A stretch of 64,000 bases of DNA from Candidatus Woesearchaeota archaeon. GTDB taxonomy: Archaea > Nanobdellota > Nanobdellia > Woesearchaeales > GW2011-AR9. The notes under the pieces are model-generated. The model ran no database searches. It was given only the letters and a program-made list of their open reading frames with translations, and had not been told where the DNA came from. Position numbers and translations under genes: made by a program. Numbering within the stretch: position 1 is the stretch's first letter; each line of letters opens with the position of its first letter. The stretch covers positions 2,571 to 66,570 of the forward strand of contig JAGVYE010000001.1 of NCBI GenBank assembly GCA_018303445.1, given 5' to 3'. Shown here piece after piece: positions 4,901 through 35,476 of this stretch.

Positions 4901-5199
4901 GGATATACCTAGAGTCAGTTAGCGTTATTAAGATTTGTTAACTACTCTGAAGGAGTTTTTCCACGAAACGAGGTTTTAAAGTATTTATTTGACCAATGAC
5001 AAAGAATGAATCACAAAGAAGGTGTGTGACAAGCCCAATAAACTCAAATAGTTTAGTAGTGATAAACAGACAAACAGGATCCTATTCTTCTAATCTCTCG
5101 TTTGTAAAACATCCTCTCAAAAATTATTTTCTTAATAATACAAATCTTTATAAATTAACTTCTGTCTGAAGGGTGTGAAAAAGGGGAAGGTGGTTATAC

Positions 5200-6990: not shown

Positions 6991-7009
6991 ATGAAAAAAG
7001 ACTACTAAT

Positions 7010-8254
7010 ATGGTGTTTACAAAATTCCTGGAAAAAATAGCGCTTTTGGCAAGATTAAGCGTAAAGGAGCGAAAGCTCCTTTCTACACCAGATCACGTTT
7101 GGAAAGCAGTACTTACGGTCAATGGGAAAAAGTATCCTGCCTATCGAATTCAGTTTAATAATGCTCGTGGACCATACAAAGGGGGAGTACGGTATCATCC
7201 TGAAGTTACAGAAGAAGAAGTAACGGACCTCGCGTTCTGGATGACCTTAAAAACAGCAGTCGCGGATCTGCCTTTCGGTGGTGGAAAGGGGGGAGTGGAA
7301 GTCGACCCGAAAGAATTGTCTGGAGGAGAATTAGAAGAGCTTAGTCGGGCGTATATCCGTGCTTTTTACAAACATCTTGGACCAGAGGTTGATATTCCTG
7401 CACCTGATGTTTATACAACCCCGCAAATAATGGCGTGGATGAGGGATGAATATGAGAAGCTTACGGGGAAAGCTGCTCCAGCAGTCATCACTGGAAAACC
7501 TTTGGAGAACGGGGGCTCGAAGGTTCGGGATATCGCTACGGCACTGGGAGGGGTTTATATCTTGGAAGAACTGCTGCGCCAGGTTTCAATTAATACTAAA
7601 ACGGTGGCCATTCAGGGTTTTGGCAATGCGGGCTATAATGCGGCAAAATTCTTACATAAACAGGGATATGTAGTAGTCGCGGTTTCTGATTCTAAAGGAG
7701 GGATCTATAAGCAGGAAGGAATAGTTCCGGAGAAAGTCTGGGAAATAAAAGAAAAAGAAGGAAGGTTGGGATGTTATGATGTCGGAACAGGAAGTTCCAT
7801 TAATGAGATTAAGAAAGATGGTTCTTGTAAGATTATCAGCAATGAGGACTTGTTGGAACTTCCTGTTGACATTCTTATCCCCGCGGCGTTAGGCGGCGTT
7901 ATAACAAAAGAAAATGCGGGAAACGTAAAGGCAAAAATAATTTTAGAATTAGCTAACGGTCCTACTACTGCGGAAGCAGATGAGATTCTTCATAAGAAAG
8001 GAATTCTTGTTATTCCAGATATTCTGGCAAATAGCGGAGGGGTGACGGTTTCGTATTTTGAGTGGGTACAGAATCTTCGTCATGAATCATGGGATGAAAA
8101 AACAGTCCAAGAGAAGCTGCAGAAGAAAATAACTGATGCCTTTCGATTGCTCTGGAAAGAGTTTAAGAAAAAAGATCAGAGCCTGAGGACTACAGCTTAT
8201 ATTTTTGCGATACGCAAAATTTTAGAAGCAGAGAAAAATAGAGGAAGGATTTAG
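7010..8254 (+). CDS. gdhA: Glutamate dehydrogenase
   Basis: 'LPFGGGKGGVEVDPKELS' catalytic Lys/Gly motif. NAD(P)-binding 'QGFGNAGYNAAKFL'. 414 aa. Confidence 0.85.
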   Translation: MVFTKFLEKIALLARLSVKERKLLSTPDHVWKAVLTVNGKKYPAYRIQFNNARGPYKGGVRYHPEVTEEEVTDLAFWMTLKTAVADLPFGGGKGGVEVDPKELSGGELEELSRAYIRAFYKHLGPEVDIPAPDVYTTPQIMAWMRDEYEKLTGKAAPAVITGKPLENGGSKVRDIATALGGVYILEELLRQVSINTKTVAIQGFGNAGYNAAKFLHKQGYVVVAVSDSKGGIYKQEGIVPEKVWEIKEKEGRLGCYDVGTGSSINEIKKDGSCKIISNEDLLELPVDILIPAALGGVITKENAGNVKAKIILELANGPTTAEADEILHKKGILVIPDILANSGGVTVSYFEWVQNLRHESWDEKTVQEKLQKKITDAFRLLWKEFKKKDQSLRTTAYIFAIRKILEAEKNRGRI

Positions 8255-15310: not shown

Positions 15311-17287
15311 TTATGAAAAAGTTTTTAGAATCCCGTTGAAAAATAATTTTACTTTATCCATCAGAGAAGTTGCTTTTCCTTCCGCTCTTGCTTCTTGGGT
15401 TGCAGAATGCGATCTTCCATCTTGGTCCTGCCAAGTGGCGGTAATTTTAAATGTGTTTTTTCGACTTAGAGGAAGATCTTGCAAGTCTAACATTAATTTT
15501 TGTTCATTTTCTAATCTATCAATGTTCCATTCGTTAATAAAGCCTGGTCCTTCAAGAACAATAACAATCTTTTGGGGAATAGCAACAGAGGTTCTTTTTA
15601 AATTGATGGCTACAGAAAAGGGATTATTATAATGCAAAACTTCAGGCACTTGGACGTTTATGCTGATGTCGGCATCATCGCTGACAAAAAATTCTACTGA
15701 TGTTCTTTTTTCGACAAGATTATTTTCTGCGCTTACGATGACCTTATCCCATCCCGCTGTCGATGTGGTTTTGGAGATCACTTTTGTTTTTTCTTGGTTT
15801 GATGGAAGGTCAATGGTTCCACATTCACTATCAAGGCAGAACTTAAGGTCATAAAGGTTAGTGGTTCCTGCGTTTTTCGTAGTGCAGGTAACTTCAACAA
15901 CCTGATCTTTTCGCACATTTTGTGGCGCAGAGCATTTTAGAGAAAGAAATTGCGAGTATCCTTTTTCTTCGTTTACGACGGTTAATTTTTTTAAGTCTGA
16001 CTGGGTATAAATAGTTTTTCCTACTCTCGCGTTGAAAGAGCCATTTACAAAAATTTCTTGCTCAGAATAGAGGGAAAAAGGGTAATTATAAGAAAAAGAA
16101 GGCTCAAGCGCCGAAGGAATTTTTACCAACCAGTATGTTTCTCTTGTTTCTCCTGGAGCGAGAAGGAGAGTACGACGATTACGCTCAATAATCTGCACTT
16201 CCTTGGGAACGGCAGCTTGAAGAGTAATAGCAGCGTAAAAATTTTCTTTGTTTTTAATCTTACCTTTGATAATGTCGTGACTTCCTTCTCCGATTTCAGA
16301 AGCGAGGACTTCTTGTTGTAATTCAATAGGCACTGGTTCTATTTCACCCTTACTGAAAACATTAGTTTTAAATTTAAGTTCGCTTGCTTCTAATCTTACA
16401 TTGTTTGACCGCCATTCATATTTGGTGTCAGGTTCTGAAGGATCGAATCCATCCCGCAGTTTAATATGGGTAGCATCTATGTATCCATATTCGCCAAAAG
16501 TAATATCAAAACTTACCCAACCTACAGAAGGAAAGTAAACTTCTGCCCACCCGTGAGGCTGCCATGGATTCTGAAAAAGAGTGGAGGTGGTATAACTTAC
16601 GCCTTTGACAAAACGCGCGGGAATTCCCAAGGAACGGACCATGGAGATAAATAACGCGGTCATTTCGTCACAAACTCCTTGCTTATTCTCAAGCACCCAA
16701 CTCGCCTTCTGCGTCGCATCCGACGTAAGAGTATTGAGGTCATAATTGATGGTGCGTTCCACCCATTCAGCGATATTAAAAACAACTTTGAAGAGATCTC
16801 CTTCATTCCCAGCAAGCTCCTTAGCTTTAGCTTTAATAAGAGGATGGTTTGAATCAATGGTTGTTGTCGGGTTAGCATATTCTTTATAGCCTTCTAAGTC
16901 TTTGTCAGAGAGAGGAAAAGAAATTTTCCTTTGAACTTCCTGTCGGGCACTGCCTGTACTAATAACAACTGTGTACCCAAAGTCTTTTGTTCCAAGTTGG
17001 CCATCTTTCCATTCATAAAGCACACCATCATCTTGCAGTTCTCCTGCATTTTGGATCTTAGAGACTTGCTGGCGTGAATCTTCTTTTGGGAACAACAGCA
17101 GCTTTGTGGAGGCTTCTTTCAGTGATGCTCCATTGCCTTCTGCGATTAAATCTACTTGACCTTTAACTTCGAAATCTATTTCTAATGATTTATATAAATA
17201 CAGGTTTTCTTTCTCAGCAAGGAGAGAAGGAAGAGATGAAAGAAGAAGTAAAAGCAAGATGATCCTTTTGAGAAGGATAGTTTTCAT
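15311..17287 (-). CDS. Large secreted transglutaminase-like cysteine protease superfamily protein
   Basis: N-terminal signal peptide. Cys-His-Asp core: 'QGVCDEMTALFISMVRSLGIPARFV', 'HGWAEVYF', 'WVSFD'. Confidence 0.6.
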   Translation of the reverse strand: MKTILLKRIILLLLLLSSLPSLLAEKENLYLYKSLEIDFEVKGQVDLIAEGNGASLKEASTKLLLFPKEDSRQQVSKIQNAGELQDDGVLYEWKDGQLGTKDFGYTVVISTGSARQEVQRKISFPLSDKDLEGYKEYANPTTTIDSNHPLIKAKAKELAGNEGDLFKVVFNIAEWVERTINYDLNTLTSDATQKASWVLENKQGVCDEMTALFISMVRSLGIPARFVKGVSYTTSTLFQNPWQPHGWAEVYFPSVGWVSFDITFGEYGYIDATHIKLRDGFDPSEPDTKYEWRSNNVRLEASELKFKTNVFSKGEIEPVPIELQQEVLASEIGEGSHDIIKGKIKNKENFYAAITLQAAVPKEVQIIERNRRTLLLAPGETRETYWLVKIPSALEPSFSYNYPFSLYSEQEIFVNGSFNARVGKTIYTQSDLKKLTVVNEEKGYSQFLSLKCSAPQNVRKDQVVEVTCTTKNAGTTNLYDLKFCLDSECGTIDLPSNQEKTKVISKTTSTAGWDKVIVSAENNLVEKRTSVEFFVSDDADISINVQVPEVLHYNNPFSVAINLKRTSVAIPQKIVIVLEGPGFINEWNIDRLENEQKLMLDLQDLPLSRKNTFKITATWQDQDGRSHSATQEARAEGKATSLMDKVKLFFNGILKTFS

Positions 17288-21820: not shown

Positions 21821-22501
21821 TTATCTTAAGTCCATGACAACATAATATTCTGGTACTTTCTGGACTAATTTTGCAGGACAATGAATAACATCCACGTTCT
21901 GATGCTGGAAAGCTTCGTAGGCCGTTCTTTTCGCTTCGCCATAAAATAGAATAATCGCCACCTGAGCTTTTTTTACTAATAAAGCTGACATGGTCATCCT
22001 TTTTGGTGGTGGTTTGGGGGAATCGTCCATAGTAATAAAGAAAGGCGATGGATCTTTTATAGAATGATGGTTTGAGAATAAGGCTCCAATATGTCCGTCT
22101 TCTCCTGAACTAACTAGAATAAAGTCGTATTTTCCACCATATTTCTGTAATTCTTGTTGATATTTCTCTACTCCTTCTTGTACTTTGAAGGGGTGGAGGT
22201 TCTCCTGGCGAATTTTTCCATTTTTTACTAATTCGTCTAGGAACGTCTCTTTGGCGAGACGGAAGTTGCTTTCTTTATCTTCCAATGGAGCTATCCTTTC
22301 GTCGATCATGAAAATATGAATATTATCCCAGGGAATAACAGCTTTTTTGAGGAGTTTAAAAATGCCAGAAACACTTCTGCCGCCTGGAATGGCAAAAACA
22401 ACCTGTTGCTGAGTTCGGAGAAGTTTAGAAAGAGAAAAAGTAATAATCTCTACTACCTTCTGGTCACTTTGGTCTTTGGTAAGATAGCTGAAGGTAGTCA
22501 C
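21821..22501 (-). CDS. pgl: 6-phosphogluconolactonase
   Basis: 'AIPGGRSVSGIF' and 'IHIFMIDERIAP' are 6PGL/GlcN6P-deaminase family motifs. Confidence 0.7.
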   Translation of the reverse strand: MTTFSYLTKDQSDQKVVEIITFSLSKLLRTQQQVVFAIPGGRSVSGIFKLLKKAVIPWDNIHIFMIDERIAPLEDKESNFRLAKETFLDELVKNGKIRQENLHPFKVQEGVEKYQQELQKYGGKYDFILVSSGEDGHIGALFSNHHSIKDPSPFFITMDDSPKPPPKRMTMSALLVKKAQVAIILFYGEAKRTAYEAFQHQNVDVIHCPAKLVQKVPEYYVVMDLR

Positions 22502-23397
22502 TTTTTTTCCAAGGCATGTCCGCCAAATTCGTTTCGTACGGCCGCAATAACGCTCTTTCCTAACGAAAACTTTCCACTTTTATCTTCTCGAATCATCGTT
22601 GCGACATCGAAAGCCGGAGCGTACCCTTTCACGGCTTCTTTGGTTTTGCGCAGTTCTCCGATGGTTACGCTGCCGATAGTGGTACCAATATTTTTAAAAT
22701 CTTCACGGCGCAAGGCTTTTGTCGTTAATTCTAAAAGCCAACTTCTGATAACAGAGGCCGGTTCCCATAAGGCTGTGGCTTTATCCAACGAAATCGGATG
22801 CTTAAATTTGCTGAGCAGTTCAACACCTTCCGCCAAACCCTGAAGATACACATATTCAATAATATTATGCACACTTTTTACAAAATGGCCGGAGCCAGCA
22901 GGACCAAAGTATCCATACCCTCCTTTTGGGGCGAGAGATTTACAAAAAGGTTCTATGGCCGAGAATTCTTCTTTCGGACCGCCAATCATTAAAGTATATC
23001 CGTTTTGCAATCCCCAAATGCCGCCAGAAACGCCGCAGTCGAAGAAATGTACTCCATACTTTTTACACCAAGAGTCATGTTTTTCGGCATTTTCATAAAA
23101 GTCATTTGCGCCATCAATGATAATGTCTCCTTTCTTAAGAAGAGGAAGAAGTTCTTTGATCATTTCATCCGTCGGCTCTCCTGCGGGCAACATCAGCCAG
23201 ACAATTTTTTTCTTATCGAGCTTTGGCAATAATTCTGGGATGCTATAGGCAGGAAGGGCCCCTTTCTTGGCAATTTCATCGACTTTCTCCGGGCTTCTAT
23301 TATACGCCACAACCATATGCTTGTGAAGAAGCAGCCTTTCCGCCATATGGTATCCCATTCTTCCTAAACCAATTAAACCTAGTTTCATAATCGCCAC
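22498..23397 (-). CDS. gnd: 6-phosphogluconate dehydrogenase (decarboxylating), short ~300-aa form
   Basis: 'MKLGLIGLGRMGYHMAERLL' NAD(P) Rossmann. Overlaps pgl and zwf. Confidence 0.75.
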   Translation of the reverse strand: MAIMKLGLIGLGRMGYHMAERLLLHKHMVVAYNRSPEKVDEIAKKGALPAYSIPELLPKLDKKKIVWLMLPAGEPTDEMIKELLPLLKKGDIIIDGANDFYENAEKHDSWCKKYGVHFFDCGVSGGIWGLQNGYTLMIGGPKEEFSAIEPFCKSLAPKGGYGYFGPAGSGHFVKSVHNIIEYVYLQGLAEGVELLSKFKHPISLDKATALWEPASVIRSWLLELTTKALRREDFKNIGTTIGSVTIGELRKTKEAVKGYAPAFDVATMIREDKSGKFSLGKSVIAAVRNEFGGHALEKK

Positions 23398-24770
23398 CTC
23401 AAATGATGTTTTTTTTCAAAAAGCGAGAGTTCCTGCGGTCCGGCACTTCCGATATTATATTCATAGATCTGATTTTTTTTCCGAAGAATTTGTTTGATGA
23501 CTTTCCATTGATATTCTATTTCATCGCTACGAACAAAAAGGGACTGGTCTCCTTTAATCACATCTTCAAGCAGTATTTCATAAGCCTCCGGGGAGCGAAG
23601 GTCGCGTATGCATTCATGGCAATAATTCATTTTTGCCGGCATGACGGCATTTGCTTTTCCAGGAACCTTGGCAAACAATTCCAGGGAAAAACCCTCATCT
23701 GGCTGCACGCGAATGGTAAGATAATTTGTATCACTCGGGCAGCTCGCTGAAAGAAGACAGTGCACGGACTTAAATTTAATATCAATCTTTACTTCTTTCT
23801 TATCCAGATTTTTTCCCGTGATAAGGTAAAAAGGGACGTTTTTCCATCGTTTATTGTTGATGCTTAATTTAACAGCGGCAAAAGTTTCTGTAGAAGAGTT
23901 TGAGTCCACATCTTTTTCTTTTTGATAGCCGCTATATTGGCCCAATAGCAGGTCTTTAACTTTTATGACCTTCAATACTTTTGCTTTTTCATCACGGATG
24001 AATTTTCCGGTTAATTTCTGTGGAGCTTCCATAGCCGTAAGGGCTAACATTTGCAGCATATGGTTTTGCACAACATCTTTGAGAGCACCATATTTATCAT
24101 AAAAATTACCCCGGCCTTCTAGCCCGATTTTTTCCCGGAAATGAATTTGAACAGACTGGATGTTTGAGGAATCCCATAACGGCTCTAAAACCCGATTAGT
24201 AAAGCGGAGAATGGCAATATTGCCAACTAATTCTTTTCCTAAGTAGTGATCTATCCGGTACACTTGGTTTTCATTAAAGACGCGCGCAATTCCTCGGTTA
24301 ATTTTCCTTGCTGACGGTAGATCGTGTCCAAAAGGTTTCTCATAGACAAGACGCGACCATTTCTTTCCCTGCTCTTTGGCAATACCTGTCTTTGCGAGAT
24401 TAAGAGTGATAGCATTAAAGTGGTCGGGGAGAGTGGCAAGATAAAACAGCCGATGGCCAGGCAATTGATGTTTTGATTCTAAGTTTCGTAAGATTTTTCC
24501 TAGCTTACGGTAATGCTGACAATCATAAAAGTCAAATTGTTGATAGTACGCATTGTTTTCAAGCCTTTGCCAGATATTTTCCTTGACATCTTTAATAAAT
24601 TCCCGCGCTTCCTTCAGAATTTCCTTCATCTCTAATTCTCGTCGCGCTGCACCAACAAGGGCAAATTTCTCAATTTTGTTCTCTTCGATAAGTTTGTAAA
24701 TGGCGGGAATAATTTTTCTCTTTGCTAAATCTCCGGTTACACCTAAGATTATGAACGTTATTTCGGGCAT
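23385..24770 (-). CDS. zwf: Glucose-6-phosphate 1-dehydrogenase
   Basis: Signature 'RIDHYLGKE'. N-terminal 'LGVTGDLAKRK'. 461 aa. Confidence 0.8.
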   Translation of the reverse strand: MPEITFIILGVTGDLAKRKIIPAIYKLIEENKIEKFALVGAARRELEMKEILKEAREFIKDVKENIWQRLENNAYYQQFDFYDCQHYRKLGKILRNLESKHQLPGHRLFYLATLPDHFNAITLNLAKTGIAKEQGKKWSRLVYEKPFGHDLPSARKINRGIARVFNENQVYRIDHYLGKELVGNIAILRFTNRVLEPLWDSSNIQSVQIHFREKIGLEGRGNFYDKYGALKDVVQNHMLQMLALTAMEAPQKLTGKFIRDEKAKVLKVIKVKDLLLGQYSGYQKEKDVDSNSSTETFAAVKLSINNKRWKNVPFYLITGKNLDKKEVKIDIKFKSVHCLLSASCPSDTNYLTIRVQPDEGFSLELFAKVPGKANAVMPAKMNYCHECIRDLRSPEAYEILLEDVIKGDQSLFVRSDEIEYQWKVIKQILRKKNQIYEYNIGSAGPQELSLFEKKHHLRWRL

Positions 24771-24779
24771 TCTTTTCCT

Positions 24780-25709
24780 TTACTCTACAATCGGTTTTAT
24801 TTCGTTACCAAATATGGCACTGATTTCTTTGCAGTACGAAACGATATTTTTCTTAAACCAGGGAGGTTTACTTTTCTGAATTTGGCCCATAATAAAATAG
24901 CTTACAGCCATAATACTCCCATAATCAGCTTTGGCAGGGAGAGGGAGGTCAAAGCGATCTTTTCCCCATAAAGTATTTTTATCACCAAAACTGATAAATA
25001 ATTCATCGGGACGTTTTACAATTGTCGTAGCATGTTTAACGTATTCTGTAGAAAAAATAGAGTAGGCAAGCTCTCGGCCAAACATTTCCACAAATTTTTT
25101 GTCTAACATCTCTCTCATAAGCTCAAATTGTGGTGGAAGGAGGAGATAAAAAGCACCATAATTTTGAAAATTGGGAAAATTAAGTTTGGCAATGGTTTTT
25201 TCTATAAACTGAAGGATATGATAGGGATTTTCTCGTGTTTTTCCCAAAATCATACCCAGATATGTTGATGTGTTATAAGTATATGGTTCTCTATTTTTGG
25301 GGAAAATGAAAACATTTTGAGAAGGCAGCTCTTTTGCGGCCAGAGCCTTTTGGTTGTTGGTAATAAGGTAGACTGGTTTCTTTCTTTTCTTCGCTTCTTT
25401 TGCCATTAATGGGGCATGTTTTCCTCCTGAGGCGGAAAAAATGAGAACAGCATCAATATTTTTAATCTTCAGAAGTTTTTCTTGGTAAGAATTTTCATTG
25501 GCGTAAACGGCATCATGGTCATTGAAGATAATCTGGCCGATAGCGGCGGCGTTGCCGCTGCCAATGACTAAAGGGCGTTTCCATTTGCTGATGGGAAGAG
25601 AGGGAAGCTTCGTTTTTGAGAACAATTCCAGAGCCGCCAGGACGCAGGTGTCTAAATTAGGAATATTTTGCAGTGTAAACGTTTGCATAATTTGGAGATA
25701 TTTTCCCAT
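24780..25709 (-). CDS. SIS-domain sugar-phosphate isomerase-like protein (possible bifunctional phosphoglucose/phosphomannose isomerase)
   Basis: 'LVIGSGNAAAIGQI' and 'AVLIFSASGGKHAPL' resemble the SIS domain. Size and adjacency to zwf-gnd-pgl fit archaeal PGI/PMI. Confidence 0.4.
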   Translation of the reverse strand: MGKYLQIMQTFTLQNIPNLDTCVLAALELFSKTKLPSLPISKWKRPLVIGSGNAAAIGQIIFNDHDAVYANENSYQEKLLKIKNIDAVLIFSASGGKHAPLMAKEAKKRKKPVYLITNNQKALAAKELPSQNVFIFPKNREPYTYNTSTYLGMILGKTRENPYHILQFIEKTIAKLNFPNFQNYGAFYLLLPPQFELMREMLDKKFVEMFGRELAYSIFSTEYVKHATTIVKRPDELFISFGDKNTLWGKDRFDLPLPAKADYGSIMAVSYFIMGQIQKSKPPWFKKNIVSYCKEISAIFGNEIKPIVE

Positions 25710-25844
25710 TTTATTTATGCTTTGTTAATCTGTGCTATCCCCTAAAATTTTCATTTGTTTCTGATACCCCACTGCTTGCGGTAGTTGGGTTGTTTTGCAT
25801 CAATTCGCCATTATCAGATGGGATATCAGATACATTAAAAATAC

Positions 25845-25880
25845 CCCGCCCCTTGGGGCGGTTGGGATTTTTATTTTGTC
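25845..25880. terminator. GC-rich hairpin (6-bp stem ccgccc/gggcgg, 4-nt loop) flanked by T-runs on both strands; candidate terminator downstream of the glutaredoxin-like gene
   Basis: 'ccccgccccttggggcgg' is followed by 'gatttttattttg' on the plus strand and preceded by 'aaaaata', which gives a U-run on the minus strand. Confidence 0.35.
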
Positions 25881-25887
25881 TCTCTCT

Positions 25888-26193
25888 TTATTTCTTTCTT
25901 TTTGTTTCTTTCTCTAATGCTACTTCAATTGAGCCTGGATCGAAACCAATGATAATCTCTCCGTTAATATCTAAGACAGGAACACCCATTTGACGTGATT
26001 TATCAATCATCTCTTTACGGGCCTTTTCATTAGTACTAACATCAAATTCTTGGTATTTAACCTTTTTTTCTTTAAGAAAAATTTTTGTTTTTTTGCACCA
26101 AGGGCAGGTGGGGGTAGTGTAAATTTTAACGATCATAATTTTCACCTCTTTACTAGCTAAATCCTTTTGAGCTTTATAACTGTTATTGTCCAA
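25888..26193 (-). CDS. Glutaredoxin-like protein
   Basis: 'IYTTPTCPWCKKTKIFL' CPWC active site in a thioredoxin fold. 101 aa. Confidence 0.6.
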   Translation of the reverse strand: MDNNSYKAQKDLASKEVKIMIVKIYTTPTCPWCKKTKIFLKEKKVKYQEFDVSTNEKARKEMIDKSRQMGVPVLDINGEIIIGFDPGSIEVALEKETKRKK

Positions 26194-26220
26194 TTCTGAA
26201 AAAGATAATAAAAAGAAAAA

Positions 26221-26640
26221 TCAAGCAAAGAGTTCTTTCCATTTTCGCGGCCAGCCGCGAATGAGCAATAATGCTAAAGGCACAGCCCAGTTAGCCCAGC
26301 GTTCTATAAAATCCCAAATAGGATCTCCAGCAATTGGTCGAGCAAGGGCAGTTAAGAAACCCCAGGCTGTTGCCCAGATGAGCACCAAGCGAAGAGGGTA
26401 AATAAGAGCTAAAATTCCCACTATCAGGTCCATAATCCCTACGAGACTAAGAAGATTCATAGCTGTAGCTCCCGTAATGCCCGTCATTGCCGTTAACATT
26501 TCGATAAATCTTGGTTTTAATTGCAGGGCAAAGACGCCATGGCCTACAAACTCACCAAACAAACCTATTCTTAAAATCCACTCCACTTTACTAGTTTTTC
26601 CAACACTTTTTTCTTCCACAGGAATTACAGTTTTCTTCAT
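26221..26640 (-). CDS. DoxX family membrane protein
   Basis: 4 TM helices in the DoxX-like pattern 'GLFGEFVGHGVFAL'. Confidence 0.5.
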   Translation of the reverse strand: MKKTVIPVEEKSVGKTSKVEWILRIGLFGEFVGHGVFALQLKPRFIEMLTAMTGITGATAMNLLSLVGIMDLIVGILALIYPLRLVLIWATAWGFLTALARPIAGDPIWDFIERWANWAVPLALLLIRGWPRKWKELFA

Positions 26641-26676
26641 TTTTTACAAACCTCCTTTTTGTTACTTAAGCACATC

Positions 26677-27492
26677 TTATCCGAGACGTATTATATTTGT
26701 GGAGAATAAAATCAAAATAACTCCTAATGCAACCATTATTAACCCGGTAATTAACCGCATCCATTTCCTATTTTGCTTTCTCCATTCTTCTAGTCTCTTA
26801 ACCTTTAATCCAAAATAAACGAGTAGTAAAATAACAATTAAAGGGAGGACAAAAATAAAGTTATAAAGAAGGAGATAAAAAACTACCATGGGTTCAAATC
26901 CAATCTTGGACAGCAACGCTGTAATCGCTAAATAAGGCCCCCCTGTGCAGGGAAGTTCTACCGCGGCGACGAAAATTCCCAAACCTATAGCTCCAAAGAC
27001 ACTAATTTTTTTTATCTTTTCTTTAATCTCAAGGCTTCTCTGATAGGGAATACTTAATGAAAACCCTTGGCCATACCACCAAAAATCTTTAATCTCAATA
27101 AAACCGAGAATAATAACTAAAATTCCTACTCCTATGCCTATAGGTTCCGCTAAGTTAAATCGTTGCAGGAAAAGCAATAGACCAATCCCTGCTAATAAAT
27201 ATGTAATGTAAACTGCAAGGATATAAATTATCCCAACAAAAAGCATTTTCTGTTTATTCTTTGATAAAGCCAAGAGGGTTCCAATTAATAAAATTAAAAC
27301 TCCGATAGCGCAAGGATTAATAGAGTCTACTAAAGCTGTTGTGAGAACGATGGGAAGGGTTGGGAAAGAAATGTTTTCCAGAGCAACTGCTCCTGTAAGA
27401 GAGAATTCTCCGGAAGCAAGGAAAAAAACACTACAAAAGATAAAAAATAGCGTCAAGATTAAGAAAGCATTAAATCTCATGCGAAAGCACAT
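26677..27492 (-). CDS. Cytochrome c biogenesis CcdA / DsbD-transmembrane-domain family thiol-disulfide transporter
   Basis: 'VDSINPCAIGVLILLIG' (conserved TM Cys). Second half 'VELPCTGGPYL'. Confidence 0.65.
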   Translation of the reverse strand: MCFRMRFNAFLILTLFFIFCSVFFLASGEFSLTGAVALENISFPTLPIVLTTALVDSINPCAIGVLILLIGTLLALSKNKQKMLFVGIIYILAVYITYLLAGIGLLLFLQRFNLAEPIGIGVGILVIILGFIEIKDFWWYGQGFSLSIPYQRSLEIKEKIKKISVFGAIGLGIFVAAVELPCTGGPYLAITALLSKIGFEPMVVFYLLLYNFIFVLPLIVILLLVYFGLKVKRLEEWRKQNRKWMRLITGLIMVALGVILILFSTNIIRLG

Positions 27493-27896
27493 CCTGCTTT
27501 TTGAGCAATAGTTTCCAAAGGCTGAACTCCCACAATTCTTGTTCCATCTTTAAATTCCCAGGTGGGATATTTCTCGACCTTCTTTTCCAGGCAAAGACTG
27601 GTTTTCGCTTTTATGCCGCGACAGGCAGCGGGCAATTCCTCTTTTGCCACATCACAACGCGGGTCACATTCTATGTATACTTCTTTCTCTTTTAAGATAA
27701 AATTTGATTTTCCAAACATCTTTTCTTGCTTGGCACAATTTGGACACCAGAAAGCGCCATATTCTTTAACTTCTTTTTCGGCTAAACAGTTCGCTAACTT
27801 GTCCGTAACGTCCTTGGGATAAGAAGAGCTGCTACAGCCTATAATAAAGAACAATCCTAGTATTAATAATGTCAATATAATTCTATCTCTTTTCAT
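27477..27896 (-). CDS. Secreted thioredoxin-like protein (CxxC)
   Basis: Signal/TM helix then 'GAFWCPNCAKQEKMF'. Confidence 0.5.
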   Translation of the reverse strand: MKRDRIILTLLILGLFFIIGCSSSSYPKDVTDKLANCLAEKEVKEYGAFWCPNCAKQEKMFGKSNFILKEKEVYIECDPRCDVAKEELPAACRGIKAKTSLCLEKKVEKYPTWEFKDGTRIVGVQPLETIAQKAGCAFA

Positions 27897-28371
27897 GGCA
27901 TATCACTTTTAATTGGTACGATAAAATAAGCATCACGATAATAATCAGGTCTGCCGCCACACAAAGAATGCAGATCGACAGAATAAAAACTAATTCCGTG
28001 TACAGCAAATAAAGTGCAAAGAGCAGGCTCAGGAGCATCAAATAAAACAAAAAAGTTGAAAACGATTTTTTATTAAGAAGAAAAGAGTTAAGTTTTAGTT
28101 CTTTATTTGTTTTGATAGAGAAAAGAGAAACAACCACAATCATAAAAGTCACTATTCCCAGGAATGACACGGGAATCCCGCTTCCTGGCGGGAATTCTGA
28201 GTAAATGCTTTTATTGACAATGTCGCAGCTTAATTCGGGTGCAAAATCACAAAAGCTTTCTGTATCCGCATAATGGAGGAATAATAAATAAGAAAAGATA
28301 ATAATCGCGAGAAGTGAAAAGGAGAACATCCACTTAATTATTTTCAGCTTACAACTCTTTTTTTTGGACAT
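27883..28371 (-). CDS. Vitamin K epoxide reductase (VKOR) family protein, paralog 1
   Basis: Loop Cys pair 'FCDFAPELSCDIV' and TM CxxC 'ICILCVAADL'. Confidence 0.6.
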   Translation of the reverse strand: MSKKKSCKLKIIKWMFSFSLLAIIIFSYLLFLHYADTESFCDFAPELSCDIVNKSIYSEFPPGSGIPVSFLGIVTFMIVVVSLFSIKTNKELKLNSFLLNKKSFSTFLFYLMLLSLLFALYLLYTELVFILSICILCVAADLIIIVMLILSYQLKVICHEKR

Positions 28372-28538: not shown

Positions 28539-29915
28539 ATGAGAACATTTGATTTAATTGTTATTGGTTCTGGTGGGGGGGCGAATCTTGTTTCTTTAGC
28601 GTATGAGTTAGGTTATACCGTAGCTTTAATAGAAGAGTGGAAGTTAGGAGGGACTTGTCTGAACCGTGGCTGTATTCCTTCGAAGATGCTGATCCATCCT
28701 GCAAATGTCTCGCGAATAATCCAAGAAGCGGAAAAGTTTTACATTAAAGCCTATCAAAAATCAATTAATTTCCCACAAATTCTTAAGCGGATTAATAAAA
28801 CGACGGACACGGAGTCAAATGATATTAAAGAATGGTATCAGGAAAAGAGAAAAGGATTGGCTTTTTATTCCGGCCATGCTCGTTTTATTTCGAATAGAAT
28901 AATAGAAGTGCAAGGTGAAAAGATAACTGCGGAAAAAATTGTTATTGCCACCGGAGCACGATCTTCCATTCCTCTTATTCCAGGATTAAAAGGAACGCCC
29001 TATCTCACAAGTATGGAAGCATTGCGGTCGCGGCTTTTACCAAAAAAACTTTTCGTTATCGGCGGGGGATACATTGCCTGCGAGCTTGGTCATGCCTATG
29101 GCGCTTTGGGATCGGAAGTTCATTTACTTGTTCGAGACAGGGCTTTATTGACACGGGAAGACGGAGAAATAAGTAAGAATTTTACAGAAGCCTTTTCAAG
29201 GAGATATCAAGTGCATTTTTGGACCGTGACGGAAAAAGTAGAGTACAAAAAGAAAAAGTTTACTCTTTATCTTAAAGATGCTGAAGGTAAAAAATCAAAG
29301 ATAAGTGGCGATGGATTACTGATGGCTACAGGTGTAATGCCGAATAGTGATAAATTAGGGTTAGAGAATACGAACATTTCTGTAAATGAAAAGGGCTTTA
29401 TTAAAGTAAATGAGTATTTAGAAACAGCAGTGCCGGGGGTATATTCTCTAGGTGATGTGGTGGGGAACTATATGTTCAGACATAGTGTGAATTTTGAAAG
29501 TCAGTTTTTATTTCAAGCTTTATTCGGTAAGCAACGAAAACCAATTCAATATCCTCCCATGCCCCATGCGGTGTTTACAAATCCGGAAGTAGGATCTGTA
29601 GGAATGACGGAAGAAGAGTTGCAGAAGAAGAATATCTCTTATGTGGTGGGGAAAAATGAATATCGAAAATCAGCCATGGGAGAAGCACGCTTAAGTTCAA
29701 AGGAAGAATTTGTTAAATTGTTATTTCACAAACAAACAAGAAAATTATTGGGAGCACATATCCTGGGAGAGGAAGCGTCAACGATGATTCATCAGTTAAT
29801 CTATGCGATGACGTTTGGCGCAACAGCTGAGGATTTATTAAAAATGATTTATATTCATCCGGCTTTGCCGGAGGTCATACAAAAGGCAGCGGAGAAGGCA
29901 AGCGATGGATTTTAG
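28539..29915 (+). CDS. Flavoprotein disulfide reductase (dihydrolipoamide dehydrogenase / glutathione-reductase class)
   Basis: 'LIVIGSGGGA' FAD motif and redox-active 'GGTCLNRGCIPSK'. 458 aa. Confidence 0.7.
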   Translation: MRTFDLIVIGSGGGANLVSLAYELGYTVALIEEWKLGGTCLNRGCIPSKMLIHPANVSRIIQEAEKFYIKAYQKSINFPQILKRINKTTDTESNDIKEWYQEKRKGLAFYSGHARFISNRIIEVQGEKITAEKIVIATGARSSIPLIPGLKGTPYLTSMEALRSRLLPKKLFVIGGGYIACELGHAYGALGSEVHLLVRDRALLTREDGEISKNFTEAFSRRYQVHFWTVTEKVEYKKKKFTLYLKDAEGKKSKISGDGLLMATGVMPNSDKLGLENTNISVNEKGFIKVNEYLETAVPGVYSLGDVVGNYMFRHSVNFESQFLFQALFGKQRKPIQYPPMPHAVFTNPEVGSVGMTEEELQKKNISYVVGKNEYRKSAMGEARLSSKEEFVKLLFHKQTRKLLGAHILGEEASTMIHQLIYAMTFGATAEDLLKMIYIHPALPEVIQKAAEKASDGF

Positions 29916-31392: not shown

Positions 31393-32424
31393 TTACCTAT
31401 ACCTTCTCATCGTTTTCCATTCGATAATAGTTTTCATAATTCCAGGAATAAGACCGGTAAAGACAAAATCTCTATAAATAAAAATTCCATTGTATTTTCC
31501 TAAGCTAATAACCATTGGTTTCGGCTCTGGATTATACATTAGTAATGGTTCTCCTTGCTCTAAATGATAAATGTTTTTGACAACTAATCTCGCTTGTTTC
31601 TCAGCACTCTGGGCTGTTTTTTCTTCTTTAATATTATTTATATCGCCAGCGGCGAAGATATTTTTATGGCCTTGCACTTGGAGATATTCATTGACGCACA
31701 GAAAGTTCTTTGAATTTAATTCTATTGAGCAATATGAAGCCAGATGCTCATAGTTCGGCATGATACCGGTACATAGAAAGGCAATATCGGGATGGAGTTT
31801 TTTCCCTGTTCTAGTTTTATATACGCCGCTTTCATTTTCTATTATCCTTTCATTGAAGATAAGTTGTACCTTTCTTTTTTCCAACCATTGTTTTGCATAC
31901 CTCTGCGCTTTTTGTGGAGTTCGTTCCATTAATTCTGGCTTAGTATGAATAAGAGTAATTTCTTTCTCAGGATAATGAGTACTAATTTCCGCCGCTAATT
32001 CGACACCAACTATTCCTCCGCCAATAATAAGAACGTCTTGAGCATGCCTTAATTTTTGCGCATAAAGGCGAAGTTCCTGCCCTCTGCTTGCTACAACCCT
32101 GTTTGTTTCTTTAATGGGAGTTTCATAGCGTGATCCAGAGGCGATTATTAGATAGTCGTAGGAAAATTCTTGTTGGTTTGTGGACACGGAAGAATCTTTG
32201 ATTTTTATAATGGAGTCACGCACAATATGGGCTTTATGAAGATAGTGCGTATGCAGTACTTGGATTTTTTTCACATGCTGTGGTTCTACCAAGGTGCGAA
32301 GAATGGAAGGAGTAAATTCAAAATAATCTTTAGTGTCAATTAATGTTACATCAAAGTCTCTTTCTAAGTTCCTGGCTGCGACTGCTCCGGCAAACCCGCC
32401 CCCAATTATAACTACTTTTTTCAT
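31393..32424 (-). CDS. Type II NADH dehydrogenase / FAD-dependent pyridine nucleotide-disulfide oxidoreductase (NDH-2 or SQR-like)
   Basis: 'KVVIIGGGFAGAVAA' and a second Rossmann 'VLIIGGGIVGVELA'. Confidence 0.6.
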   Translation of the reverse strand: MKKVVIIGGGFAGAVAARNLERDFDVTLIDTKDYFEFTPSILRTLVEPQHVKKIQVLHTHYLHKAHIVRDSIIKIKDSSVSTNQQEFSYDYLIIASGSRYETPIKETNRVVASRGQELRLYAQKLRHAQDVLIIGGGIVGVELAAEISTHYPEKEITLIHTKPELMERTPQKAQRYAKQWLEKRKVQLIFNERIIENESGVYKTRTGKKLHPDIAFLCTGIMPNYEHLASYCSIELNSKNFLCVNEYLQVQGHKNIFAAGDINNIKEEKTAQSAEKQARLVVKNIYHLEQGEPLLMYNPEPKPMVISLGKYNGIFIYRDFVFTGLIPGIMKTIIEWKTMRRYR

Positions 32425-32483: not shown

Positions 32484-32756
32484 CTATCCTTCTTCTCCAC
32501 GCAGAATTCTGAGTGTTTTATCATAATCCTGTGCCGCATCTCTGTCAATGGTTCGGTAATAGGCATTCAAGCGCTGAAATTCACGTACTGCAATGCCAAA
32601 AGGAGCGTAATTAAGAATTTCATCAAGCTGTCGTTCAATAACTGTGGGGTCAATCTCTTCATTACTGATAAGGTTATCTACGGTTAACTGTATGCGTGGT
32701 ACTTGCCTTTGAGCAATTTTTCTCGCCCTTTCAATTGACCTAAAAATATCCGTCAT
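32484..32756 (-). CDS. Hypothetical protein
   Basis: 90-aa ORF. Confidence 0.3.
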   Translation of the reverse strand: MTDIFRSIERARKIAQRQVPRIQLTVDNLISNEEIDPTVIERQLDEILNYAPFGIAVREFQRLNAYYRTIDRDAAQDYDKTLRILRGEEG

Positions 32757-32918
32757 ACTTTTATCATTATTTTCTTTTTGGAGATAAAAGTATTTGACTA
32801 AAATTTTCTCAAAATGAGAGTTTCAATTATTCTTTTTAATTATTGGTGCAGATACTTTTTTATAGGAAGTTTCTTTTCTTGTTTCATAGAAAATATTCAA
32901 TATCAACATTTTTTGGCT

Positions 32919-33395
32919 ATGAAAGAAAAAAATCAAGCAATGATTTTGAAAGTAATGCTCGTTCTGGGAATACTCGGTCTTATAACGGCGGCATACCAAA
33001 CGGTTGAATATTACTTTCTGAGAAGCAGCTTCTGTGATTTTAGCCCTAATTTTTCCTGTTCCATCGTCACTCAATCCTCTTACGGAGAATTTCCCTTCCT
33101 CTCTGGGATAGCGGTGTCTCTTTATGCTGTTCTTTGGTGGCTGGTTCTTTTAGGCATCATTTCTTTAATGCTCTGGAAGAAAAAGGAATGGTTCTTGTAT
33201 CTTAAGGTCTGGATGATCTTAGGGATCATGAGCGCTCTTTATTTCCTTTTCGTCGAGCTCTATTTACTTCCCCAAGAAATTGGACTGATCGTGATTTGTC
33301 CTTTTTGCACAATACAACATCTGTTGATCGCAACTCTTTTGGTCATGGGATTTTTTTTCACAAGGAAAAATTTATTAATGACAGATTCTTCCTAG
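32919..33395 (+). CDS. Vitamin K epoxide reductase (VKOR) family protein, paralog 2 (start moved to internal Met)
   Basis: 'FCDFSPNFSCSIV' loop Cys pair and 'ICPFCTIQHL' CxxC. The ORF-track start at 32814 adds 35 implausible residues. Confidence 0.55.
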   Translation: MKEKNQAMILKVMLVLGILGLITAAYQTVEYYFLRSSFCDFSPNFSCSIVTQSSYGEFPFLSGIAVSLYAVLWWLVLLGIISLMLWKKKEWFLYLKVWMILGIMSALYFLFVELYLLPQEIGLIVICPFCTIQHLLIATLLVMGFFFTRKNLLMTDSS

Positions 33396-33593: not shown

Positions 33594-34511
33594 ATGAGAA
33601 AACTTACTAAGATTGAGGACCTTAGAATGATGGCGGATATTATCAGAGAAGATAGTATTGTTTCCTTAAGTGCAGCTAAATCCGGCCATTCAGCCGGACC
33701 ATTAGGCATGGCTGATATCTTTACTGCTTTTTACTTTAATATTCTAAAGCACAATCCTGAAAAACCTAACTGGCCGGACAGGGACAGGTTAATTCTGTCT
33801 AATGGGCATATCTGTCCAGTGTTATATGCAACGATGGCTAATGCCGGCTATTTTCCCAAAAAAGAATTATTAACACTCCGCAAATTAGGCACGAGGTTAC
33901 AAGGACATCCACATCGCGTTGCTTTACCTGGACTGGAAACTACTTCTGGTCCGCTGGGGTCGGGATTATCGCAAGCTGCCGGGATGGCTTATGGTTTCAA
34001 ACTCGACAAGAAAAAAAATCTTGTCTGGTGCTTATGCAGCGATGGGGAACAAGATGAGGGCAACCACTGGGAAGCAGTATTATTTGCTGCCAAACATAAA
34101 CTGAACAATTTGGTTGCGGTCACGGACAGAAATTATATCCAAATTGATGGAAATACAGAACAGGTTATGCCTCTCGACCCCTTGGACCAGAAATATCGGG
34201 CTTTCAATTGGAATGTTCAAACAATAAACGGCAATGATATGCAGGAAATCTTAAAAGTATTAACTGCAGCTAGAATGAATAAAAACAAACCGTTGATGGT
34301 TATTGCTAACACTATGCCTGGTAAAGGAGTTTCCTACATGGAAGGGGATTACCGTTGGCATGGTTCCCCTCCTGGTACTATAACCACAGAAAGGACACCA
34401 GCCAAAGAAAAACAAACAGCAATTGCTTTAGAGCAGCTTCATCAAAAAGAAGCTAAGGAACGCGGAAACTGGTATCTTTACCATAAAAAATTACGCCCCC
34501 TGCATTCATGA
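33594..34511 (+). CDS. Transketolase, N-terminal (TPP-binding) subunit
   Basis: 'GHSAGPLGMADI' and 'TSGPLGSGLSQAAGMA'. Split form typical of archaea. Confidence 0.8.
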   Translation: MRKLTKIEDLRMMADIIREDSIVSLSAAKSGHSAGPLGMADIFTAFYFNILKHNPEKPNWPDRDRLILSNGHICPVLYATMANAGYFPKKELLTLRKLGTRLQGHPHRVALPGLETTSGPLGSGLSQAAGMAYGFKLDKKKNLVWCLCSDGEQDEGNHWEAVLFAAKHKLNNLVAVTDRNYIQIDGNTEQVMPLDPLDQKYRAFNWNVQTINGNDMQEILKVLTAARMNKNKPLMVIANTMPGKGVSYMEGDYRWHGSPPGTITTERTPAKEKQTAIALEQLHQKEAKERGNWYLYHKKLRPLHS

Positions 34512-35476
34512 AGAATCTCAATAAACAAATGAATTTGGACTTAACACGGGAGCGAGTTCCTACCAGAAATGGATACGGAGACGCACTGATGGAATTAGGC
34601 AAAAAAAATAAGAAAGTCATGGTTCTCTGCGCTGACTTGAAAGAATCGACGCGAGTTCAGGCTTTTGCTGAAAAATTTCCCCAGCGCTATGTTGAAATGG
34701 GGGTAGCGGAACAAAACCTTGTTACAGTTGCTTCGGGATTAGCTGACGTTGGTAAAATTCCCTTTGCTTCGTCTTATGCGGTCTTCTGCCCAGGAAGGTG
34801 CTGGGAGCAAATTAGAACCACGATTTGTTATAATGATCGCAATGTTAAAATTATCGGCGCCCATGCTGGCATTTCCGTTGGCCCTGATGGAGCTACTCAT
34901 CAAATGTTGGAAGATCTGGCCTTAATGCGGGCTTTGCCGAACATGATTGTAGTAGTACCTTGTGATTATGAGCAGGCCAAAAAAGCCACGGCGGCCATTG
35001 CGAAGTATAAAGGTCCCACCTATATGCGTTTTGCTCGTGAAAAAACAGAGCAGATCACAACAAGTAAAACTTCTTTTAAAATCGGAGTTGCCCAAATCTT
35101 TAAGGATGGTTCTGACGTGGCGCTGGTTGCCGCTGGCCCGTTGATTTATGAATGTCTGCTGGCAGCAGACAAATTAAATGAAAAGGGAATTAAAGCGATG
35201 GTTGTAAATTGTCATACCATTAAGCCTTTAGATGGCAGAACTTTACTTACTGTAGCCAGAAAATGTAAAAAAGTAATAACTGTTGAAGAAGCGCAAATTG
35301 CAGGAGGATTAGGTGGTGCGGTGGCGGAATTTTTATCCGAAGTTTATCCTGTGAAAATGAAACGAATTGGTGTTCGAGATCATTTTGGAGAATCAGGAGA
35401 ACCAGATGAATTATTAAAAAAATTTGGCTGTAGTGCAGAAGCTATTTATAAAGAAAGTCTTAAGTTGTGCACGTAG
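34508..35476 (+). CDS. Transketolase, C-terminal (pyrimidine-binding) subunit
   Basis: ATGA overlap with the N-terminal subunit gene. 'YVEMGVAEQNLVTVASGLA'. Confidence 0.8.
   Translation: MKNLNKQMNLDLTRERVPTRNGYGDALMELGKKNKKVMVLCADLKESTRVQAFAEKFPQRYVEMGVAEQNLVTVASGLADVGKIPFASSYAVFCPGRCWEQIRTTICYNDRNVKIIGAHAGISVGPDGATHQMLEDLALMRALPNMIVVVPCDYEQAKKATAAIAKYKGPTYMRFAREKTEQITTSKTSFKIGVAQIFKDGSDVALVAAGPLIYECLLAADKLNEKGIKAMVVNCHTIKPLDGRTLLTVARKCKKVITVEEAQIAGGLGGAVAEFLSEVYPVKMKRIGVRDHFGESGEPDELLKKFGCSAEAIYKESLKLCT

Follow-up and report, generated by a model that had tools for sequence, protein, structure and literature searches.

Enzymes of the VKOR family that work together with a thioredoxin (Trx)-fold partner are established in cyanobacteria, actinobacteria, plants, and bacteria of the Candidate Phyla Radiation (CPR) (PMC6744442, PMC13486548). 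The cyanobacterial VKOR-Trx fusion of Synechococcus (DsbAB; 3kp9, 4nv2) and LTO1 of plants bring together a four-cysteine VKOR and a Trx-like domain, and homologs of both parts stand side by side in the archaeal locus that we describe here. The locus lies in a stretch of 64,000 nucleotides from a Candidatus Woesearchaeota archaeon (contig JAGVYE010000001.1 of assembly GCA_018303445.1, positions 2,571 to 66,570), which we call the window and to which all window coordinates refer. An initial annotation of this DNA had claimed five co-oriented, partly overlapping open reading frames (ORFs) on its minus strand, at 25888-28371, as a single extracytoplasmic thiol-disulfide module of a kind uncommon in archaea. 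All five ORFs are present at these coordinates, but the functional unit is the tightly packed trio formed by the genes for a VKOR, a Trx-like protein, and a CcdA-like membrane protein, in that order, and this trio is the standard arrangement across the DPANN archaea. With moderate confidence, we read the locus as the Woesearchaeote copy of a DPANN-wide operon that makes and corrects the disulfides of exported proteins. The five genes are the following:

27883-28371, minus strand: VKOR1, 162 aa, four transmembrane segments (TM), predicted quinone-dependent disulfide generator (PF07884)
27477-27896, minus strand: Trx-like lipoprotein, 139 aa, signal and lipobox Cys21, active site Cys51-Pro-Asn-Cys54
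26677-27492, minus strand: CcdA-like protein (DsbD clan; "GAP family" or SfLAP in databases), 271-aa membrane protein
26221-26640, minus strand: DoxX-clan four-TM protein, 139 aa, no Cys
25888-26193, minus strand: glutaredoxin-like (Grx) ORF, with the ATG at 26136 as likely true start

The overlaps between genes are as had been claimed, VKOR1 and the Trx-like gene sharing 14 nt and the Trx-like and CcdA-like genes 16 nt, and the same packing recurs elsewhere. We carried out three censuses, anchored on VKOR homologs, on the CcdA-like protein in species-representative genomes, and on the Trx-like protein in metagenomes. Around the VKOR homologs, every long contig showed a VKOR followed by an ORF of 121-140 aa and another of 265-280 aa. 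The CcdA-anchored scan, made with a single protein (an alignment, as used for the metagenome scan, would reach further), gave 10 loci from Woesearchaeota, Pacearchaeota, "Nanobdellati", and one bacterium; the Trx-like gene lay directly upstream in all 10, preceded in nine of them by a canonical VKOR. The Trx-anchored scan returned 80 loci that fall into two clades, one with VKOR upstream and the CcdA-like gene downstream, the other with a DsbB gene downstream. Single-sequence phmmer searches had made many of the Trx-like genes in these 80 loci appear solitary, a view overturned by profile hidden Markov models and neighbor clustering, according to which most of them precede DsbB. Trio-type loci with a length of 6 kb or more numbered 27; VKOR is a gene of its own in 25 of them and is fused to Trx in another, and the last breaks off upstream. 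The trio is present in 27 of 27 assessable DPANN loci, which span the Woese-, Pace-, and Nanoarchaeota. Exact database matches to the window (locus tags J4421_00160 and J4421_00165) belong to a Candidatus Woesearchaeota MAG, related contigs carry archaeal markers (for example TFIIE, histone, L15e, and eIF2), and junctions of at most 20 nt are found in 30/32 cases between VKOR and Trx-like genes and in 33/36 between Trx-like and CcdA-like genes. A query with the CcdA-like protein retrieved more than 4,000 database matches, the best at 60-78% identity. Dozens of independent contigs share this order almost without gaps, far more than chance would allow. The conservation stops at the trio: a DoxX-clan gene occurs within 6.5 kb of it in 13 of the 27 loci, with no fixed position or strand, and Grx adjacency is found almost only in the window, so the five genes do not hold together as one unit. 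In the literature that we could search, which lacks most subscription journals, the operon was undescribed for VKOR, CcdA, and DoxX in archaea or DPANN, and DoxX and VKOR were not mentioned jointly. All the families, and the pairing of VKOR with a Trx fold, are known; we could not find a description of the packed DPANN trio operon or of its association with the DoxX clan, which are apparently new.

Judged by sequence, the VKOR assignment is unambiguous. VKOR1 scores 64.9 bits against PF07884 and VKOR2, a second, stand-alone VKOR of the window, 52.1-52.5 bits (cut-off 27.5 for both). VKOR1 carries Cys41 and Cys49 in its loop and the motif Cys134-Ile-Leu-Cys137 in TM4; these four cysteines are invariant across 14 aligned homologs, VKOR2 among them, which keeps the loop pair together with a CPFC motif. 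The loop motif VNKS-Y is also conserved in the alignment and supplies the Ser/Thr expected there, and VKOR1 weakly matches the Synechococcus VKOR structure 4nv2. Its N-terminus and its TM2-3 loop each contain five Lys or Arg residues, while the Cys loop has a single one and six Asp or Glu, and a four-TM topology is predicted in which, by the positive-inside rule, the Cys loop would lie outside the cytoplasm. Two variations touch on this family. VKOR2 (ORF 32814-33395, plus strand) has no Trx-fold gene adjacent, and a 90-aa ORF (32484-32756, minus strand) separates it from an FSP1-like gene. A bacterial copy of the trio, on contig JAGGUZ010000011 (L013) together with DnaN and Mfd, includes at 5049-5576 a VKOR-like protein, perhaps a VKOR that has degenerated or been rewired, which keeps the loop Cys pair, has S-A-P-Y in place of the TM4 CxxC, and carries a C-terminal CEFC.

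The Trx-like protein escapes the Pfam models, with Thioredoxin_2 as its only match at 19.3 bits (cut-off 27), yet its residues 45-135 match the Trx domain of the Synechococcus fusion (3kp8/3kp9, E=4.8e-8), with which it has the motifs GA(F/Y)WCPxC, ECxP, and YPTW in common. The cis-Pro loop position reads Y-P-T-W in the window as in Synechococcus, and YDTW or YATF in some homologs. At the N-terminus, a hydrophobic segment leads to Cys21, which is invariant and set in a lipobox-like (G/A)C context, and the protein is predicted to be exported and anchored on the outer face of the membrane. The other invariant cysteines of the alignment are C37, C51, C54, C77, C102, and C136. Beyond the active site, this allows the pairs 37/136 and 77/102, to which the window protein adds 81/92 in an insert; two to three such pairs are conserved in the family. 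We infer that these pairs form structural disulfides, which would be evidence for an oxidizing, extracytoplasmic location. The two findings that the initial annotation had named as fatal to its claim, a cytoplasmic CxxC protein and a lost loop Cys pair, were thus not what we saw: the loop pair and the TM4 CxxC are kept in both VKORs of the window, and the secreted Trx-fold protein has a signal with an invariant lipobox Cys. Its description as an extracytoplasmic thiol-disulfide module therefore holds, as far as predicted topology goes.

The pairing of the two proteins is supported from two further sides. First, the fusion of VKOR and Trx, which the initial annotation had proposed to look for in relatives, exists in DPANN: one locus (L102) encodes a 306-aa fusion collinear with both window proteins, in which an extra TM5 occupies the place of the signal peptide of the split form, and a second fusion was found in P0321. 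Second, in the sister clade of the Trx-like family, represented by 33 loci labeled B and one labeled BX, the gene downstream encodes, instead of VKOR, the other known disulfide generator linked to quinone, DsbB (PF02600, 36.8 bits, cut-off 22.1); the contigs of this clade carry bacterial genes, such as those for SecA and sigma-70, and the active site CP[HNK]C is common to both clades. Homology to 3kp8, fusion to VKOR in DPANN, and pairing with DsbB in bacterial relatives all point to a DsbA-type oxidant, and we regard it as highly likely that VKOR and the Trx-like protein form an oxidative pair of the DsbB/DsbA type. Several loci vary this theme. In the Woesearchaeota locus with the fusion (L102, 2637-4249 and 6256-7251, both minus strand), the active site is CSSC and the CcdA-like gene comes before the fusion, so that the order is permuted; a fatty-acid desaturase gene 2.7 kb away recalls the VKOR-desaturase modules of giant viruses (PMC13486548). 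In L010 (711-1627), the place of the single Trx-like gene in the trio is taken by two tandem paralogs (CSNC and CPHC), and in L024 (4579-8345) the VKOR and CcdA-like genes are both duplicated; in these two loci, oxidative and reductive roles may be divided between the copies. Four proteins (P0288, 725 aa; P0289, 951 aa; P0332; P0380) contain four to five Trx-like domains in tandem and belong to multi-Trx surface proteins.

The third member of the trio was harder to place. The window protein scores 37.4 bits against SfLAP (PF11139, cut-off 35), a family matched by 38/38 of its CcdA-like relatives and which we take to belong to the same Pfam clan as DsbD_TM; PF02683 (DsbD_TM) itself is matched by 21/38 close relatives (best 6.2e-10) and PF13386 by three. 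All 38 sequences keep the motifs N59-P60-C61 and L180-P181-C182-T-G-G-P unchanged, with Cys61 in predicted TM1 and Cys182 in predicted TM4, and Pro-Cys cysteines in TM1 and TM4 are the signature of CcdA/DsbD proteins. The predicted topology is an N-terminal signal or anchor followed by a six-TM core, N-out/C-out, with alternating loop charge. A PDB sequence-profile search with the CcdA-like alignment retrieved no CcdA and only noise; with Foldseek, CcdA 5vkv was the sole high-probability match (0.91), although the fold matches to CcdA were weak. These weak fold matches, together with the best Pfam and NCBI names (SfLAP, "GAP family"), a weak ArsG match, and one LysE match, would suit an SfLAP/GAP- or LysE-type exporter of lipids or small molecules that is merely co-transcribed with its neighbors. 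An exporter would leave unexplained the invariant PC-motif cysteines of TM1 and TM4, the DsbD_TM matches of so many relatives, and the near-obligate adjacency to a CxxC gene, and the named function of SfLAP, mycobacterial glycolipid addressing, does not fit an invariant Cys pair; we consider this explanation quite improbable. The CcdA/DsbD call of the initial annotation can be retained at the level of the clan, on account of the Cys motifs and of the 21 relatives, but not at the level of the family, as the window protein is divergent and falls below DsbD_TM. We regard the protein as a putative transmembrane thiol-disulfide electron transporter.

CcdA together with a membrane-anchored Trx-like protein is a classical pairing in bacteria, and some sources name homologs of the window protein "cytochrome c biogenesis protein CcdA". 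On these grounds, the CcdA-like protein and a ResA-like Trx might keep the CxxCH of apocytochromes reduced, as in cytochrome c maturation of the System II type. Genes for cytochrome c or for ResB/CcsA-type proteins are absent from the Pfam-annotated neighborhoods of L001, L003, L005, L097, L098, and L100-L102, the homology of the Trx-like protein is to the DsbA-type domain linked to VKOR and its partners are VKOR or DsbB, and electron-transport chains are missing in most DPANN (PMC8407392), all of which makes a role in cytochrome c maturation hard to credit.

Taken together, the trio suggests the following mechanism. On the outer face of the membrane, the Trx-like lipoprotein, through its CPNC site, would oxidize Cys pairs of exported proteins as DsbA does. 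VKOR1 would then re-oxidize it in the manner of DsbB, passing electrons from Cys41/Cys49 to Cys134/Cys137 and on to a membrane quinone, probably scavenged from the host. CcdA-type proteins normally carry electrons out of the cytoplasm, and the CcdA-like protein would likewise draw on a cytoplasmic redoxin and deliver its reducing equivalents to the outer face via Cys61/Cys182; in the window, the donor could be the neighboring YruB-type Grx, with NAD(P)H as the ultimate driver. The near-obligate position of the CcdA-like gene after the Trx-like gene makes the Trx-like protein its most likely partner, and we infer from this arrangement a reductive or isomerase input, its direction, and its target. 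Most likely, the CcdA-like protein would keep some of the Trx-like protein, or mis-oxidized clients, reduced; that it feeds its electrons to that very Trx-like protein is a tentative proposal, on which we are almost evenly divided. A single Trx-fold protein would then form and also reshuffle disulfides, much like protein disulfide isomerase (PDI), and the DoxX-clan protein would be a frequent accessory. The "complete" oxidative-folding and isomerization toolkit claimed for the locus would in this way depend on one Trx-fold protein for both arms.

The exported proteins encoded around the trio offer a modest measure of support for this mechanism. In about 319 kb of trio-bearing loci, exported proteins contain 1.91% Cys compared with 1.08% for cytoplasmic ones, and the ratio of even to odd Cys counts is 15:4 compared with 75:84 (Fisher p=0.0135), a test that is limited by crude hydropathy-based export calls, a small sample (n=21), and the inclusion of orthologous pairs. 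An even-Cys bias was reportedly a criterion in earlier genomic surveys of disulfide formation by Dutton and colleagues. The expectation of many disulfide-bonded secreted proteins thus finds some backing in the pooled loci, while the window alone, with four exported proteins, is uninformative. The limits of this test are one of several points that weigh against the operon as we read it. Every step of the mechanism rests on sequence and prediction. The window's CcdA-like protein has no match to DsbD_TM or DsbD_2 at E≤0.01, and when its halves are compared with hhalign, NPC aligns with LPC at an internal-repeat E of 0.071, which is not significant. The Grx gene adjoins the trio in 0/10 CcdA-anchored loci. 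In E. coli, the oxidative and reductive arms use separate Trx-fold proteins, and if an oxidase and a reductase acted on a single one, the result would be a futile cycle, barring a kinetic separation of these activities. Finally, most DPANN are reported to be without electron-transport chains (PMC8407392), which leaves the re-oxidation of the quinol unexplained.

As to likely substrates in the window, the initial annotation had pointed to a secreted ORF at 6397-6990 (plus strand), whose mature part contains 8 Cys and which matches no Pfam family; the gene upstream of it (5200-6348, plus strand) encodes 382 aa that include a cupredoxin domain (PF13473, 30.2 bits) at the C-terminus. Elsewhere, L012 (3083-3595, minus strand) and L014 (7467-7970, minus strand) encode orthologous exported proteins of about 170 aa with 16 Cys and no Pfam match, which, at 1-2 kb from the trio, are candidates for substrates. 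A large exported protein with a transglutaminase core (646-658 aa, 5 Cys) is encoded both in the window (15311-17287, minus strand) and in L001 (5588-7528); its gene lies near the trio in L001 and at a distance of about 10 kb from it in the window.

The trio of the window sits in a redox cluster of about 14 kb (21.8-35.5 kb), which comprises genes for 6-phosphogluconolactonase (6PGL), 6-phosphogluconate dehydrogenase (6PGD), glucose-6-phosphate dehydrogenase (G6PD), an SIS-like protein, the five-gene string, a flavoprotein disulfide reductase, a PD40 propeller, a 343-aa flavoprotein, VKOR2, and a split transketolase. The oxidative pentose-phosphate set (6PGL, NADP-type 6PGD, and G6PD) is complete and lies with the SIS-like gene at 21821-25709 on the minus strand, and the split transketolase is at 33594-35476 on the plus strand. 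Three of the other members of the cluster are:

28539-29915, plus strand: class I FAD/NAD(P)H disulfide reductase, transcribed away from VKOR1
31393-32424, minus strand: FSP1/AIFM2-like (NDH-2 type) NAD(P)H:quinone oxidoreductase, 343 aa, no CxxC
32919-33395, plus strand: VKOR2, stand-alone, about 158 aa counted from Met36, the likely start, of a 193-aa ORF starting at 32814

The disulfide reductase matches Pyr_redox_2 at 180.9 bits together with a dimerization domain and contains the motif GGTCLNRGC; its best NCBIfam match, NF004944, reaches 545 bits, under the cut-off of 619, and the protein resembles dihydrolipoyl dehydrogenase (DLD) and mycothione reductase. We mention it for context, as a possible NAD(P)H input. 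The 31393-32424 protein was considered as a thioredoxin reductase-like source of electrons for CcdA and rejected, as it has no CxxC and is FSP1/NDH-2-like: it matches eukaryotic AIFM2/FSP1, a reductase of quinones and vitamin K that uses NAD(P)H, over its full length (7xpi, E=2.8e-43; 8yo8, E=1.8e-41), the next family following at about 1e-16. Its gene adjoins VKOR2 and is near the NADPH-producing pentose-phosphate genes. An enzyme of this type suggests that the organism handles membrane quinone, and menaquinones have been detected by lipidomics in a host-dependent DPANN symbiont (PMC11035636), which makes a scavenged quinone a plausible acceptor for VKOR; the identity and source of the quinone in our locus are presumed on this basis.

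This neighborhood also bears on a different explanation of the trio. If the activities were not kinetically insulated, electrons would run downhill through the trio, starting at NAD(P)H and ending at quinone, and it could serve as a transmembrane quinone reductase, a thiol-to-quinone relay similar to the vitamin K cycle, in which electrons pass from NAD(P)H through a redoxin, the CcdA-like protein, the Trx-like protein, and VKOR to quinone, either keeping scavenged quinones reduced as antioxidants or dumping fermentative reductant, with protein oxidation as a secondary effect. The strict co-operonic placement of an "oxidase" and a "reductase" around a single Trx-fold protein would be accounted for in this way, as would the lack of respiratory chains in most DPANN (PMC8407392) and, in the window, a cluster that joins the FSP1-like reductase, VKOR2, the DLD-like flavoprotein, and the NADPH-generating G6PD, 6PGD, and 6PGL. 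The cluster is suggestive only, since the FSP1-like, DLD-like, and pentose-phosphate genes are found near the trio in no other fetched locus. Furthermore, the Trx-like family works with DsbB and without CcdA in bacterial relatives, the Trx-like protein itself would need structural disulfides, exported proteins show the even-Cys bias, and the energetic benefit of a relay is not evident. For these reasons, we judge a relay to be unlikely; in its more specific form, with the trio and DoxX serving primarily to pass electrons from NAD(P)H through thiols to host-scavenged quinone, for membrane antioxidant protection like that of the FSP1/VKORC1L1 vitamin K cycle or to dispose of fermentative reductant, and wired to the FSP1-like, VKOR2, and pentose-phosphate genes, it appears distinctly so.

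The DoxX family includes the quinone-reducing subunit DoxD, and an enrichment of the clan near the trio would favor such a relay. The window protein gives no match at default thresholds and reaches 16.4 bits (E=0.013) against DoxX_3 (PF13781, cut-off 25). Its relatives match DoxX_3 at E≤1 in 25/27 cases (best 3.6e-6), MauE in 11, and DoxX in three; the motifs GHG, RP, and DF(I/V)ERWANWAxPLAL are conserved, and the protein resembles a solved family member as a small four-TM helical bundle. The DoxX call of the initial annotation is thus borne out for the clan, through relatives and fold, whereas the protein itself is divergent and below the family cut-off. Two types of DoxX-clan protein are found near the trio, one of 127-139 aa and another of about 157-174 aa that matches PF07681. 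The clan is enriched near the trio (13/27 loci) relative to DsbB-type loci (1/16; Fisher p=0.006), a difference confounded by taxonomy, and in L100 and L024 VKOR is paired with DoxX while a Trx gene is missing, which again would suit a relay. With its variable placement, the DoxX-like protein is a frequent but movable accessory of the trio. The second DoxX paralog (about 155-174 aa) stands beside VKOR at L100 479-1409, L024 4579-5419, L009 4264-4731, and L001 10477-11001, the L100 and L009 copies being those that match PF07681.

A search anchored on the DoxX-like protein gave three loci, each with a VKOR no more than 5 kb away, and two of the three were copper clusters. L101 (4157-7913) has a cupredoxin, two small ORFs, DoxX-like immediately upstream of a CopZ-like HMA gene and a P-type ATPase gene, and then a VKOR on the opposite strand; L100 has a 462-aa HMA-DsbD_TM/DsbD_2-cupredoxin fusion (6778-8166), a CsoR-type repressor, a Cu-type ATPase, and DoxX-like. 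In L018, a homolog of the Cu-type ATPase (E=7e-119 to CopA of L101) lies 3.5 kb from the Trx-like, CcdA-like, and DoxX-like genes, and cupredoxin genes flank some Trx-like/DsbB loci. These associations raise the alternative of a defense against copper or metal stress, similar to copper tolerance through ScsABCD or DsbC-DsbD in bacteria, in which the CcdA-like and Trx-like proteins would repair copper-catalyzed non-native disulfides or handle copper at the cell surface and the DoxX-like protein would belong to the copper response. Copper genes are present in just three to four of more than 40 loci, however, the nearest cupredoxin-domain gene of the window (5200-6348) is 20 kb from the trio, and to our knowledge VKOR is not part of the Scs systems; as the function of the trio at large, copper defense is improbable. 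Three supposed copper pumps beside the trio (L007 6796-9357, L011 8224-10935, L023 1467-4091) were discarded, since they are cation pumps of the P2 type and carry the domains Cation_ATPase_N and Cation_ATPase_C.

The Grx protein scores 72.7 bits against PF00462 and 93.4 against TIGR02196 (YruB, cut-off 88.55), has a CPWC motif, and shows no signal, TM segment, or hydrophobic N-terminus, in agreement with its annotation as a cytoplasmic glutaredoxin, of the YruB/NrdH type. A copy lies about 2-4 kb from the trio in L098/L099, L028, and L055; as a candidate for the cytoplasmic electron donor, it is weakly linked to the module. On the DNA, the gap between the CcdA-like and DoxX-like genes is 36 nt, with a GGAGG motif inside the spacer, and that between DoxX-like and Grx is 27-84 nt (84 nt if Grx starts at 26136). 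A T-rich tract follows the DoxX-like stop codon, and a terminator-like GC hairpin with a T-run is located at 25861-25846, 3′ of the Grx gene. Between Grx and the SIS-like gene (25710-25887) lie two GC-rich elements that resemble each other, CCCAACCGCCCCAAGGGGCGGGGTA and CCCAACTACCGCAAGCAGTGGGGTA; of these, CCCAACCGCCCCAAGGGGCGGGGTA folds into a perfect hairpin followed by a T-run. The window is AT-rich (GC about 37%), no tRNA genes or Rfam-recognized RNAs were found in it, and a sigma-70 promoter scan gave 25 sites against 19.4±4.2 expected, which carries no information in an archaeon.

The cells of DPANN archaea are tiny and for the most part dependent on a host; they are thought to have no respiratory chains and to obtain their lipids from that host. 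A conserved quinone-dependent operon would imply that they keep and use membrane quinone and that they invest in disulfide-bonded surface proteins, the mediators of host attachment. The placement of an oxidizing and a reducing membrane protein around one Trx-fold protein would differ from the two insulated pathways of model bacteria and resemble PDI of the endoplasmic reticulum, and with only three proteins of 139-271 aa the system could show how a minimal cell balances the formation of disulfides against their repair. It could also reveal the electron sink of VKOR where there is no electron-transport chain. Apart from the trio, FSP1-like enzymes in DPANN archaea may merit a study of their own, and L100 and L101 connect both DoxX-like proteins and VKOR with the handling of copper in certain DPANN genomes.

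Among the known systems, the cyanobacterial fusion is alike down to the W-C-P-x-C, E-C-x-P, and Y-P-T-W motifs of its Trx domain. In contrast to this fusion and to LTO1, the window has separate genes overlapping by 14 nt, with a signal and lipobox on the Trx-like protein replacing TM5, and the DPANN Trx-like proteins have extra Cys pairs and are always followed by the CcdA-like gene. We know of no CcdA-like gene linked to cyanobacterial or plant VKOR-Trx enzymes, nor of a CcdA-like partner of crenarchaeal VKORs. The crenarchaeal enzymes, such as that of Aeropyrum pernix (cited in PMC13486548), have been studied and are archaeal homologs able to support disulfide formation; some of them face the cytoplasm, while both VKORs of the window are predicted to face outward. 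Actinobacterial VKOR with DsbA/MdbA and CPR VKOR with MdbA-like proteins (PMC6744442) likewise combine a stand-alone VKOR with a membrane-anchored Trx-fold oxidant encoded next to it, but their oxidants are of the DsbA/MdbA type with a helical insert, whereas the DPANN Trx-like protein is of the VKOR-fusion type, in an archaeal host and with an obligatory CcdA-like third gene. ScsB-ScsC of Salmonella, Proteus, and Caulobacter resembles the trio in placing a transporter of the DsbD superfamily beside a DsbA-like CPxC protein, and has a parallel in the copper neighbors of L100 and L101; it differs in that it includes no VKOR or DsbB and that ScsB has extra periplasmic domains, while copper linkage in DPANN is confined to few loci. 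Finally, Bacillus BdbC/BdbD with CcdA-ResA/StoA and E. coli DsbB-DsbA with DsbD-DsbC place a quinone-linked oxidative arm and a reductive arm fed from the cytoplasm in the same compartment, as we propose here. In those bacteria, the two arms are separately encoded and work through distinct, kinetically insulated Trx-fold proteins, whereas in DPANN one operon holds the genes for the two membrane components, with only one Trx-fold gene, which lies between them.

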